This document shows, piece by piece, positions 19,825-28,124 of a stretch of 64,000 bases of DNA (the stretch's first letter is position 1; each line of letters begins with the position of its first letter). The DNA is taken from the IMG/VR virus record IMGVR_UViG_3300042866_001263; one strand, 5' to 3'. The notes beneath the pieces were generated by a model that worked only from the letters and a program-made list of their open reading frames with translations, ran no database searches and had not been told where the DNA came from. This DNA comes from a virus (taxonomy: Duplodnaviria > Caudoviricetes). The translations under genes were made by a program, and so were the position numbers.

Positions 19825-20459
19825 TGGCATGTTTTTCAGGAGCTTACATACCAGATAGTGGATTGGTATTTGCTTTAGACGCTTCAAATCAAAAGTATCT
19901 AAGTAATGCTGGTATCATATCAACATCAAATATTACTTATAGTAGTTCATTTGGTGGAGGAAGTATTATTTTCAATGGATCTTCTAGTAGCATATCTATT
20001 CCAAATCCACTAAATCAAGCAAATCTTTCGCAGGTTTGGACGGTATCTGCTTGGATTAATGTTTCTTCTGCTCAACAAACCCAAACTTTATTGGGTGGAT
20101 TGAATAATGGGATCCACGTTGATTGGTTTAATGGTGGGTCCTTATTATATTTAAATGGTGGCGCTAATGATTATTATACATATGGCGGAAATATTAGAAC
20201 ATCTACATGGAAGTTAGTTACATATAGATTTAATAATGTTAATGGAAATAGAACAATATATGATGGTATTACAAATATTAGTACAAGTGGTCCAAATTTT
20301 ACCAGCACTCCATCTGGTCAATCATCATCATTTACAATAGGATCTGGCAGTGGATATATGTTAGGTAATTTAGCACAAATGTTGATTTATAACCGATACA
20401 TTACCGATACTGAATTGACAACCATATACAATAATACCAGGGCACGTTATGGTATATAA
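19824..20459 (+). CDS. LamG/concanavalin A-like virion protein, paralog 3
   Basis: GLVFALDASN start, WTVSAWIN, IYNRYITDTELTTIYNNTRARYGI end. Confidence 0.8.
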   Translation: MACFSGAYIPDSGLVFALDASNQKYLSNAGIISTSNITYSSSFGGGSIIFNGSSSSISIPNPLNQANLSQVWTVSAWINVSSAQQTQTLLGGLNNGIHVDWFNGGSLLYLNGGANDYYTYGGNIRTSTWKLVTYRFNNVNGNRTIYDGITNISTSGPNFTSTPSGQSSSFTIGSGSGYMLGNLAQMLIYNRYITDTELTTIYNNTRARYGI

Positions 20460-20462
20460 ATA
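20455..20462 (+). promoter_or_regulatory. T4 late promoter (TATAAATA)
   Basis: Perfect T4 gp55 consensus about 23 bp upstream of the ATG at 20485. Confidence 0.8.
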
Positions 20463-20484
20463 CTCAATAAAAGGCTTATAGGAA

Positions 20485-22572
20485 ATGGCAAATTCTGATA
20501 AGGATATCCTTATAACGCCGAATAAAGGCACAACATCATTACCAGAACTTAGTTTTGTCGGTCAAGTCAATTCACCGATCAAGCTTCGTGTGCTTGATGA
20601 TAACACACTATCCTTTGAGGGTTCTGCTGGTCAGTTATTTTCAATCAACAACAACCTAACCGCTGGAACAATCTTTGCAGTTTCTGATGTTTCTGGTGTT
20701 CCTGGATTATCTTATGATGCTAATGGAGCATTAAAATTAACTCCGTTTAATGGAGTTACGATGGTTGGTGGCACAACCACCACATCGTCAAACAAACTAG
20801 TAGTTGTAAAACCCAACGCAGGAACAAGTTACTCTTTAGCAATTCAAGTTAATAGTGGTATTGTTGACGGTCAATATGATGGTATTGCCTTCACTCAAGG
20901 TGCTGATGGATCTGCTCCATTAGGTGGTATTCGTGTAGAATATAAATCTAATGGGTCACCTGATTTAGGTTTTTATACAAGAAGTGGTGCTTCAACAGAG
21001 AGTAGAAAACTTTTAATTTATAATGGTGGTAACGTTTCAGTTGGTGGAGATTTTGCTAACTATTCTCGTCTTAATGTTATTGGTGGTTCTGGTATTACCA
21101 TTAGAGCTGATAGTTCATCAACTAGCAATAGATACATTTATTTTAGACAAGCACCAAATGATTACGGTTTCCGTATTACACAAGATGATGCTTCCGTTGG
21201 TATGCTTTTCTTCCGAGCAGTTGATGCTGGAAATGATACTAACCCATTAATTACTTTAGATAGACCAAACTTAAGAGTTGGTATTGGTCAATCCTGGAGC
21301 ACAACAACAAGACCTGGATATACCCTTGATGTTAATGGAGACATCAACTTCTCTGGTAACCTTTATCAGGGTGGTTCTATCTTCAAAACTCTACCAACTC
21401 AAACTGCCACAACTGATGGTTCGGTCCTCAGAACACGCTGGAACTCAGCAACATCAGCATATGAAGCATACTGGACACACGATCTAGATGCTAACTATCG
21501 TCTAGAGAACCCAGATCAGTGGTCATTCCGTTATATCATCAACAGAGGTTATACAGTTGCTGGTTATCAAAATGCTAATCCATGGAGAAATGGCAATAGA
21601 ACTTCACACCCATCAGACGTAACAATTTCTATTGGAGACGTTATTGACTACTCTGCTGCTTATATTGGCGGTTCACATAACGGCGTAAATCTATTTGTAT
21701 ATAATTGCGCCAACTCTTGGTTGCCAGCTTCTGCTGCAACTTGTTCCATGAGCATGATTACTGAGACGAACAGAGGTCTAAACTCATCATGGAATGATAC
21801 AAGGGCACGTTCGTATTCTGGAGCATGGATTGACTTTATGGGTAACCAGTGGAGAACAAATGCTGGCAGAAATAGAGCATATATTAGTTCTGGTAATGGC
21901 AATACATCACGTCATGATCTGAATACAGAGGCGATGATTGCTGAAATTGGTGGCACTATTTCTTATGTTTCTCACGCAGAAGGAGAATATTTTGCTTGGG
22001 TTTCTCAAGGTCAAAATAGATTTGAGTTCTCGACAGAAACGTTTACAGCATGGTCAAGTTACTCCCCAGCTCCTGGATGTGATGGAATTAACAAGCACCA
22101 AGCAACACGTATTGGTTTCTTCTATTGTTCAGAAGGTGGCAACACAGATAGAAACGTAACGAAGAGAAGAGATAGTGATGCTGTTATTCTAAGATCTGGC
22201 ATTATTAAACCAGAAACTGGAGGAGAAGAAAACCTACATACTGGTATGAATAAAGGATATTGTATTTCAAACTACAATTATGCTCAGAATAACAACGCTT
22301 GGATTTACCAATATTATAATGATGTTATCCGTTTTGCTGATGGAACACTCACATACCGCAAAGGAATTCCTGGTGCTTCTTCTGGAACTGGTCAAGAAGG
22401 TGGAGATATGATGGGCGCTGGCGTACCACCAAGAACTTACATGACTTATGCTGGTGGTCAACAAGCTGCTCCTGGCACAGTTGTGTATGGTGGATCTACT
22501 GGTGCCACTCAACTTGGTGGTGCGGCAGTTACTGATGGTGCTGGTGCTACTGGTGGAATTGGAACTTACTAA
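20485..22572 (+). CDS. Tail fibre / receptor-binding protein (695 aa) with a beta-propeller-like C-terminal domain
   Basis: MANSDKDILITPN...LSFEGSAGQLFSI N-terminal anchor; LDVNGDINFSGNLYQGG shaft-end motif; RGYTVAGYQNANPW...FEFSTET head domain; Gly-rich tail. Confidence 0.7.
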   Translation: MANSDKDILITPNKGTTSLPELSFVGQVNSPIKLRVLDDNTLSFEGSAGQLFSINNNLTAGTIFAVSDVSGVPGLSYDANGALKLTPFNGVTMVGGTTTTSSNKLVVVKPNAGTSYSLAIQVNSGIVDGQYDGIAFTQGADGSAPLGGIRVEYKSNGSPDLGFYTRSGASTESRKLLIYNGGNVSVGGDFANYSRLNVIGGSGITIRADSSSTSNRYIYFRQAPNDYGFRITQDDASVGMLFFRAVDAGNDTNPLITLDRPNLRVGIGQSWSTTTRPGYTLDVNGDINFSGNLYQGGSIFKTLPTQTATTDGSVLRTRWNSATSAYEAYWTHDLDANYRLENPDQWSFRYIINRGYTVAGYQNANPWRNGNRTSHPSDVTISIGDVIDYSAAYIGGSHNGVNLFVYNCANSWLPASAATCSMSMITETNRGLNSSWNDTRARSYSGAWIDFMGNQWRTNAGRNRAYISSGNGNTSRHDLNTEAMIAEIGGTISYVSHAEGEYFAWVSQGQNRFEFSTETFTAWSSYSPAPGCDGINKHQATRIGFFYCSEGGNTDRNVTKRRDSDAVILRSGIIKPETGGEENLHTGMNKGYCISNYNYAQNNNAWIYQYYNDVIRFADGTLTYRKGIPGASSGTGQEGGDMMGAGVPPRTYMTYAGGQQAAPGTVVYGGSTGATQLGGAAVTDGAGATGGIGTY

Positions 22573-22583
22573 TAGGAACTAAA

Positions 22584-27885: not shown

Positions 27886-27890
27886 TTACT

Positions 27891-28082
27891 ATGGCAACCG
27901 ATACCGCAACACTGAAAGAAAATTTCACTACTCAACTTACTAACGTTGACGCTCAGATTGTCAAACTAGAAGAAGAACTAGCAAAAGCAAAGGAATACAA
28001 ACTCAAGCTTCAAGGTGGTCTAGAAACTCTAGAACTTCTCACTCCAACTGAAGAAGCACCTGCCGAAGCAGCAGCAGAATAA
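27891..28082 (+). CDS. Small coiled-coil hypothetical protein
   Basis: LKENFTTQL...KLQGGLETLELL; usual small gene before gp13. Confidence 0.7.
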   Translation: MATDTATLKENFTTQLTNVDAQIVKLEEELAKAKEYKLKLQGGLETLELLTPTEEAPAEAAAE

Positions 28083-28088
28083 TCCCAG

Positions 28089-28124
28089 ATCCCTTCTTAC
28101 TAAATATGTAAGAAGGGATTTTTT
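28089..28124 (+). terminator. Intrinsic terminator with a late-promoter core (TAAATA) as its loop
   Basis: Perfect 12-bp stem ATCCCTTCTTAC (28089-28100) / GTAAGAAGGGAT (28108-28119), loop TAAATAT, followed by a T run. Confidence 0.75.

Follow-up and report, generated by a model that had tools for sequence, protein, structure and literature searches.

Gene organization of the locus

Our analysis concerns a unit of eight genes (g1 to g8) in a 64,000-nucleotide stretch of viral DNA (IMG/VR record IMGVR_UViG_3300042866_001263; Duplodnaviria, Caudoviricetes), here called the window. Four of these genes belong to a cassette that recurs in T4-like cyanophages, and the last of the four, g7, encodes a predicted fusion of a U32-like TIM (triosephosphate isomerase) barrel with an O-methyltransferase. 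A preliminary description of this DNA, made from the letters alone, had proposed a late operon in which a tail fibre, a chaperone-like protein, a coiled-coil protein, three oxygenases and the U32-methyltransferase fusion form one hydroxylating and methylating system. The layout was borne out: eight closely spaced plus-strand genes lie between TATAAATA and a terminator (Table 1), and the distances between successive genes from g1 to g8 are 11, 15, 2, -4, -4, -8 and -4 nt (negative values are overlaps). The start of g3 is either 23379 or 23391, and that of g4 is most likely ATG 24137. For g7 the most likely start is ATG 26194 and not 26152, because this ATG overlaps the g6 stop codon as ATGTTTAG and homologues begin there.

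Table 1. Features of the eight-gene unit (coordinates of the window).
Feature	Position	Strand	Basis or remark
TATAAATA, T4-type late-promoter-like	20455..20462	+	ends 22 nt 5′ of g1 ATG
g1, 695 aa, fibre-like	20485..22572	+	phrog_1417 C-terminal domain
g2, 263 aa, candidate TAP-like helper	22584..23375	+	phrog_10301/1604/2618
g3, 247-251 aa, helical, coiled-coil N half	23379..24134	+	phrog_1409
g4, TIGR02466 / 2OG-FeII_Oxy_5 oxygenase	24131..24889	+	profile match; probable start ATG 24137
g5, TIGR02466 / 2OG-FeII_Oxy_5 oxygenase	24886..25536	+	profile match
g6, DUF6445 protein, HxD...H pattern	25533..26201	+	profile match and sequence
g7 N-terminal domain, U32-like TIM barrel	26194..27195	+	predicted structure, invariant Cys
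g7 C-terminal domain, predicted class I SAM-dependent O-methyltransferase (Methyltransf_24/COMT/TylF type)	27229..27885	+	fold, homologues
second TATAAATA inside g7	27771..27778	+	111 nt 5′ of g8
g8, 66 aa	27882..28082	+	phrog_580
intrinsic terminator, 14-pair stem, 7-nt loop, T run	28087..28127	+	stem 28087-28121

aa, amino acids; SAM, S-adenosylmethionine; 2OG, 2-oxoglutarate.

Co-occurrence of the core genes in cyanophages

The functional unit appears to be narrower than first proposed, with a core made up of the C-terminal domain of g1 (g1C), g2, g3 and g7. We compared the window proteins with 80 IMG/VR loci encoding a g7 relative and took counts over the 40 of them that have at least 4.5 kb of upstream sequence. 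Genes of the g1 and g3 families were present upstream of g7 at all 40 loci, and g2 was detected there at 38. Searches of a phage database gave matching numbers, with 126 records for g7 (and also for its N-terminal domain alone), 126 for g3 and 123 for g1C. The g7 and g3 records each comprise 77 Synechococcus, 38 Cyanophage, 8 Prochlorococcus and 3 Ralstonia entries, and the 123 g1C records show the identical cyanophage breakdown (77/38/8). Since gp13 matches about 464 cyanomyovirus records and the cassette is found in 123, the cassette is an accessory unit carried by roughly a quarter of them. It is located 5′ of gp13 in the window phage, S-CAM4 and P-HM2, and beside denV in P-SSM4 and Syn19/33.

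The equal record counts, the 40 of 40 loci and the recurrence of the genes in a Leptospirales chromosome (see below) uphold the proposed tie between the U32-like/methyltransferase enzyme and a fibre-like gene. The wider set was sorted by the same comparison: g1C, g2, g3 and g7 travel together, the oxygenases g4 to g6 are optional, and g8 falls outside. The small gene g8 has to be removed from the unit, as it travels with gp13 instead; it is always found directly 5′ of gp13, and many relatives have a variable stretch of 1.5-4 kb between it and g7.

The same four genes had been catalogued by Sullivan et al. (2010, PMC3037559) as T4-GC 351-354 in 5 of 16 genomes, namely P-SSM4, P-HM2, Syn19, Syn33 and S-ShM2. 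In that listing g1 is T4-GC 351 ('sericin 1 precursor-like'), g2 is T4-GC 352 and g3 is T4-GC 353. The core of the cassette is thus not new as a gene list; the listing describes its members as hypothetical or 'sericin 1 precursor-like', and it neither assigns a fold nor treats the genes as a cassette, nor does it connect them with U32 proteins or bacteria (PMC3037559). We found no paper that links U32 proteins to cyanophages. All four genes are still annotated as hypothetical. The 123 of about 464 T4-like cyanophage records that contain the cassette include P-HM2, P-SSM4, Syn19 and S-RIM2.

Predicted structure of g7

The U32-methyltransferase fusion described for g7 is real, with the U32 part visible in the predicted structure and not in sequence searches of Pfam or PDB. 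Sequence profiles gave only weak matches for g7, to the Lys-AminoMut_A TIM barrel (E 2e-3) and to Methyltransf_24 (E 9e-3). An AlphaFold model built from 41 homologues has a mean pLDDT (predicted local distance difference test) of 83 and consists of two domains, residues 15-348 and 360-575 in a 577-amino-acid numbering. For the N-terminal domain Foldseek returned the U32 protein MJ1657 (E 3e-10, TM 0.72), Bacillus subtilis TrhP2 (E 2e-7) and PrtC (E 1e-6); AFDB clusters named Peptidase U32 matched as well. VIA-align, which is independent of Foldseek, ranked the U32 protein Mk0906 (PDB 5d88) with Z 16.3 and a root-mean-square deviation of 3.1 over 220/247 residues, 3 units above the next TIM barrel (Z 13.3). 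The modelled domain shows the catalytic TIM-barrel fold of U32 proteins, and its assignment as a divergent U32-type barrel is supported by this predicted fold. The archaeal proteins Mk0906 and MJ1657 are its closest folds; unlike g7, they carry no methyltransferase fusion, and they are 10-17% identical to the g7 domain and of unassigned function. Seven cysteines are invariant across the 41 diverse N-domain homologues. Three of these (C208, C212 and C242) follow barrel strand 6, by our reading as in UbiU, and the other four (C333, C337, C340 and C343) form a terminal CxxxCxxCxxC motif.

The C-terminal domain matches O-methyltransferases (Z 15-16.3); its best VIA-align matches include 8c9v (Z 16.3), MeT1 (Z 16.0), TrmR (Z 15.5 and 13.9) and SpnH, of which MeT1 and SpnH are sugar O-methyltransferases. 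With 17.3 bits the window g7 stays below the cut-off of 26.3 for PF13578, a domain that is carried by many g7 homologues of 58-81% identity and that reaches 43 bits in stand-alone relatives. The model has a Rossmann methyltransferase fold with a Gly-rich motif and acidic residues, and the invariant positions are E411-x-G413...G417, D435, D497, D524, D525 and N527, from which we infer binding of SAM or of a metal. Both g7 domains also occur as separate proteins. A search with the whole fusion recovered about 1,570 representatives at E <=0.001, some of which match the methyltransferase half only. The g7 branch would thereby enlarge the U32 family by members that sequence profiles miss. To our knowledge most U32 subfamilies have no assigned substrate.

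The pairing of a U32 hydroxylase with an O-methyltransferase is a known kind of system; what is new here is the fusion, the divergent branch and the cassette linked to a fibre-like gene. In B. subtilis TrhP1/TrhP2 (YrrO/YrrN, U32) and TrmR (YrrM) make mo5U34 in tRNA, and g7 resembles this system in combining a U32-type barrel with a COMT-like O-methyltransferase, in a logic of hydroxylation followed by methylation. Unlike TrhP/TrmR, g7 holds both domains in one protein that is too divergent for PF01136. Its Cys pattern is different and is extended by a four-Cys tail, and its genetic partners are a fibre-like gene and the genes of two unnamed proteins, not RNA genes. It is conceivable that g7 is a fused analogue of TrhP (YrrN/YrrO) and TrmR (YrrM) that makes a methoxy-pyrimidine such as mo5U34 in tRNA, or that modifies rRNA, and so tunes late translation, the fibre neighbours being incidental. 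TrhP2 (O32035) and TrmR (O32036) are encoded by neighbouring genes in B. subtilis, and both are among the best structural matches, TrmR with the two structures listed above. However, the window has no tRNA gene, no RNA-binding domain was seen in g7, its sequence falls outside PF01136, and the matching counts and adjacency with g1C, g2 and g3, which extend to a bacterial chromosome, would be left unexplained. We therefore regard RNA modification as highly improbable.

An equally slim chance is given to the possibility that the U32-like domain is no hydroxylase and serves as a fibre maturation factor, a peptidase or an assembly scaffold. In favour of it, the U32 family was first defined by collagenase activity, the structural matches include PrtC, g2 has some likeness to proteins of fibre assembly, and the long Gly-rich tail of g1 could be trimmed. 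Against this, the seven invariant cysteines and the intact SAM-methyltransferase domain point to redox and methyl-transfer chemistry, and U32 proteins are treated as Fe-S hydroxylases in the current literature (PMC10990095).

Evidence for late transcription

The promoter-like TATAAATA reported at 20455 is present, at -29 relative to the g1 start, and shares bases with the stop codon of the preceding gene. With 3 copies against 4.25 expected, the octamer shows no enrichment in the window. Its core ATAAATA occurs in 12 copies on the plus strand and in none on the minus strand, and copies are found 23-61 nt 5′ of gene starts at 5459, 33402, 39819, 42417 and 45975. Of 28 distinct relatives, 24 have ATAAATA between -32 and -26 relative to the g1 start and two more have CTAAATA at the corresponding position; the g1 proteins of these relatives go down to about 27% identity with the window g1. 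No ATAAATA motif was found 5′ of g7 in 53 distinct regions. The second TATAAATA, which lies within g7, is probably a chance match, since it does not keep the -26 to -32 spacing conserved before g1.

In P-HM2 infecting Prochlorococcus MED4, the orthologues PHM2_098-101 (g1, g2, g3 and g7) were all classed as Late, in light and in dark (PMC5082946, supplement 3). A T4-type late transcription unit should have its promoter element at a constant short spacing from the first gene and be expressed late; the former is seen here, and the latter in the P-HM2 orthologues. The cassette hence looks to be late-transcribed from a conserved TATAAATA-type promoter directly 5′ of g1, and the late operon of the preliminary description gains support from the position-conserved motif and from the Late class in P-HM2. 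Short contigs of relatives in metatranscriptome X20 (85-95% identity) cover mostly gp13-gp16 and the g7/g8 junction and cannot show a transcript, its start or its end.

The terminator closing the unit was likewise confirmed, as a 14-pair stem followed by a T run. Its loop contains CTAAATA, 32 nt 5′ of the gp13 ATG at 28132. This spacing is that of the conserved pre-g1 motif, so the element may end one late unit and start the next.

The fibre-like protein and its partners

The first 300 or so residues of g1 are variable, followed by a conserved all-beta C-terminal domain (residues ~304-657) and a Gly-rich tail. The C-terminal domain matches phrog_1417 (E 1.8e-107), whose function is unassigned in PHROG. 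Homologues of g1 are mostly 324-446 amino acids long, and conservation is confined to the C-terminal domain (~300-650). The AlphaFold model of full-length g1 has a mean pLDDT of 48.7, too poor for a fold search. The language-model neighbours of g1 carry PTL_trimer and T4_gp9_10_N (both at score 0.90, few shared features) and also Mtd_N, and those of g2 fall into clusters of which 13-55% of members carry HI1402_helical, Caudo_TAP or Caudo_TAP_N; both are leads only. The naming of g1 as a fibre and of g2 as chaperone-like, which was derived in the preliminary description, is accordingly retained here as a weaker call, based on these neighbours and on gene position. No match to g2 was found in the local Pfam copy. 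No virion proteome covering a cassette-bearing phage was found, and no virion-proteome entry was found for T4-GC 351-354 in the supplements of Sullivan et al. (2010).

Small helper genes beside a fibre gene, expressed late, are known from T4 gp38, gp57A and Caudo_TAP, and the neighbours of g2 carry TAP families. Those chaperones, unlike the genes described here, have no redox or methyl-transfer enzyme attached.

g3 is the tightest partner of the U32-like gene, which it adjoins in cyanophages, in Ralstonia phage RP12 and in the Leptospirales metagenome-assembled genome (MAG). It has an invariant motif of the form YW..R..KQ, followed by GR...GN. Searches with g3 gave no match in Pfam or PDB (the PDB search with the g3 profile returned chance-level hits) and no usable match in the atlas. 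Invariant Tyr and Trp residues are found both in g3 and in the C-terminal domain of g1. Complex prediction for the g7 N-terminal domain with g3 scored 0.00, which is no verdict and is silent on binding either way.

Oxygenases at the cassette

The family calls for g4 to g6 (two TIGR02466 oxygenases and one DUF6445 protein) pass curated cut-offs. g4 and g5 score 84.1 and 79.7 bits against TIGR02466 (cut-off 62.5) and 72 and 66 bits against PF13759 (2OG-FeII_Oxy_5; cut-off 27), and g6 scores 37.3 bits against DUF6445 (cut-off 24). As a fixed part of the system these enzymes did not hold up. Only 10 of the 40 loci, which all belong to the same clade as the window, have them between g3 and g7, and at the other 30 the interval is free of oxygenases and measures -13 to 342 nt.

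It had been proposed that g4, g5, g6 and g7 form one fibre-tailoring system with O2-dependent (2OG) and O2-independent (U32) routes. The overlapping or abutting genes of the unit would suit such a system, and so would the marine phage S-ShM2, in which g4-, g5- and g6-like genes (39-46% identity) follow directly after g3 in the same order. Because this order is kept after g3, the oxygenases are not random cargo. Further, oxygenases resembling g5 occur singly on one side of the cassette in other layouts: ahead of g1 in S-CAM4 and L042, and behind g7 in L039, L041, L043, L061 and L080. Sister contigs add more enzymes to the slot, namely one or two tandem tryptophan halogenases between the g4 and g5 homologues (L012:4897-8020; L011, L014, L017, L019; flavin-dependent, PF04820, E 1e-109 and 1e-97) and a fourth 2OG oxygenase between g6 and g7 (L012:9330-10010). 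On the other side stand the 30 oxygenase-free intervals and the cassettes of P-SSM4, P-HM2 and S-RIM12, at which no g4-g6 homologue is present. The g5 family also has a different phage distribution (91/26/2 plus non-cyanophages, versus 77/38/8 for the cassette), and such oxygenases are carried by 14 of 16 cyanomyoviruses, compared with 5 of 16 for the cassette. The slot between g3 and g7 is insertion-prone, and in S-ShM2 it also holds petE and gnd. A single system that includes all four enzymes is on this evidence improbable, and we describe the oxygenases as optional neighbours for which a functional tie is possible. A recent clade-specific insertion of the oxygenases was also considered and dropped when the identical g4-g5-g6 order was found in S-ShM2.

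Homologues outside cyanophages

All four core families occur in a row in the chromosome of a Leptospirales MAG, flanked by ordinary cellular genes. The order there is a giant LamG/g1C protein, a g3 homologue, a g2 homologue (phrog_2618/1604), a stand-alone U32-like gene and a DUF401 transporter-like gene. The giant protein has 1,523 amino acids with DUF6519, DUF2341 and LamG domains and ends in the g1C domain; the g2 counterpart matches the PHROGs of the window g2 and has a weak precomputed match to HI1402_helical. A search of genome contigs with this single bacterial query returned only its own Leptospirales genome. In the Ralstonia jumbo phage RP12, g3-like, U32-like and DUF401 genes stand in a row.

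Stand-alone U32-like genes were found in several other contexts. One homologue (P0144, L091:1-8699) is encoded directly 3′ of a full shikimate (aro) operon ending in chorismate mutase/PDT (prephenate dehydratase), and 5′ of a HemN-like radical SAM gene. Its position beside chorismate mutase/PDT, the source of prephenate, fits prephenate as an oxygen donor. Another (P0162, L100:1-11083) is part of a cluster resembling those of ribosomally synthesized and post-translationally modified peptides (RiPPs), with two radical SAM enzymes, S41 and S8 peptidases, ATP-binding cassette (ABC) transporter genes and small open reading frames of 64 and 81 amino acids. The RiPP-like context of P0162, the aro context of P0144 and the tryptophan halogenases of the sister contigs make peptide or protein tailoring plausible. 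A third gene lies in a cluster of sugar-nucleotide, radical SAM and GT2 (glycosyltransferase family 2) genes, and a fourth beside a GT2 gene next to beta-helix proteins.

These last contexts are relevant for the possibility that hydroxylation and/or O-methylation by g7 is directed at a sugar, a glycan or an aromatic metabolite and not at a protein, and that g1 to g3 are linked to g7 only through using or binding the product. Possible targets would then be a metabolite transported by a DUF401-type protein or a glycan that is presented on the fibre afterwards. GT90, RXYLT1_C and Glyco_trans_1_2 domains occur in fusion with close relatives (E about 1e-20) of the methyltransferase domain, and the sugar O-methyltransferases MeT1 and SpnH are among its best structural matches. 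Next after their U32-like gene, the Leptospirales MAG (L092:10978-12177) and RP12 (L093:9016-10053) encode a DUF401/CitMHS-like membrane protein (phrog_14035), and in the cyanophage contigs L024-26 (for example L024:10118-11191) and L030 its gene lies about 1.4 kb downstream of g7. The methyltransferase-glycosyltransferase fusions and the DUF401 neighbours hence fit a sugar or small-molecule substrate. However, the cassette contains no glycosyltransferase or sugar-nucleotide gene, no DUF401 gene was found in the window, the known U32 substrates are aromatic rings and pyrimidines and not sugars, and the matching g1C and g3 record counts would be left without an explanation. We consider a sugar or small molecule as the substrate rather unlikely.

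Proposed function of the cassette

Our preferred reading, to which we tentatively assign a probability of roughly 0.4, is that of a portable late cassette in which g7 hydroxylates and then O-methylates the fibre-like protein g1 or g3. The cassette consists of the fibre-like g1, the candidate TAP-like helper g2, the helical g3, and g7 with a divergent, putatively Fe-S-binding U32-type barrel and a predicted metal-dependent SAM O-methyltransferase. The activity, the oxygen donor and the substrate of g7 are proposed as follows. In the infected cell the U32-like domain would hydroxylate an sp2 carbon of an aromatic group independently of O2, with prephenate as the source of the oxygen as for UbiU/V, and the fused methyltransferase would then methylate the new hydroxyl. 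As the most likely target we consider a conserved Tyr or Trp, either in the C-terminal domain of g1 or in g3, and g2 and g3 would serve to hold or present this target. g4 to g6 would be an optional add-on that may bring further oxidative tailoring in the window lineage. For UbiU/UbiV prephenate has been described as the oxygen donor (PMC10990095). The proposed reaction of g7 resembles the O2-independent ubiquinone hydroxylation system to which these proteins belong (with UbiT and UbiG), where hydroxylation of an aromatic ring by a U32 Fe-S protein precedes the action of an O-methyltransferase. Unlike them, the cassette lacks a UbiT/SCP2 partner and a quinone context.

Several points weigh against a modification of g1 or g3 by g7. 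Neither g7 nor any of the 41 N-domain homologues matches PF01136. The PDB sequence search with the N-domain profile found no U32 chain, and the g7 and N-domain profiles gave chance-level matches there. An hhalign comparison of the N-domain profile with UbiU/UbiV/TrhP reached only 9.7% probability over 109 columns, in which the Cys region is not aligned. The Cys spacing of g7 differs from the U32 motif, and the cysteines are only possibly equivalent. g1 has no match in Pfam, and with its low-confidence fold its identity as a fibre is tentative. The counts given above overstate the number of independent observations because related loci share ancestry. The glycosyltransferase fusions and the DUF401 genes speak for other substrates, as described above. 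We know of no U32 protein that acts on a protein. Direct hydroxylase activity in vitro has been shown for no U32 enzyme (PMC10990095).

A more far-reaching version, which we hold to be doubtful, is that the cassette makes a covalently tailored receptor-binding fibre, with O2-independent aromatic hydroxylation of the tip or of g3, a methyl cap and, in some lineages, additional marks set by 2OG oxygenases or halogenases. If a protein is indeed the target, g7 would be the first protein-directed U32 hydroxylase, as U32 enzymes are so far known for RNA and quinone substrates only, and phages and some bacteria would have a new route to diversify an adhesin chemically and not by sequence. With the recognition of the U32-O-methyltransferase fusion, the matching counts and the bacterial gene set, an anonymous group of genes now leads to a proposal that can be tested, the enzymatic tailoring of a host-recognition structure.

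Genomic setting of the window

The window belongs to a divergent cyanomyovirus of the T4-like group. No match was obtained when the unit was compared by Megablast with the phage database of 50,697 records. On the protein level g7 matches Synechococcus/Prochlorococcus myoviruses with up to about 54% identity and gp13 with up to 85%. Four genes homologous to gp13, gp14, gp15 and gp16 follow 3′ of the unit, and near-identical DNA was found in lake and freshwater metagenomes. The relatives are mosaics: one metagenomic contig (L004) is 93% identical to the window in g7, 88% in g1, 56% in g2, 51% in g5 and 47% in gp13, and another (L007) is 98% identical in gp13 and 93% in g7. As judged from the first of these (g7 93% versus gp13 47%), cassette similarity seems to be decoupled from the backbone. 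On the 5′ side of the unit are a gene for a 2,754-amino-acid protein and three LamG paralogues. The latter are tandem genes for proteins of about 220 amino acids each (18473-20459), directly 5′ of the unit; clear Laminin_G_3 domains were found in two of them, and all three share a C-terminal R-x-R-F/Y-G-I tail.

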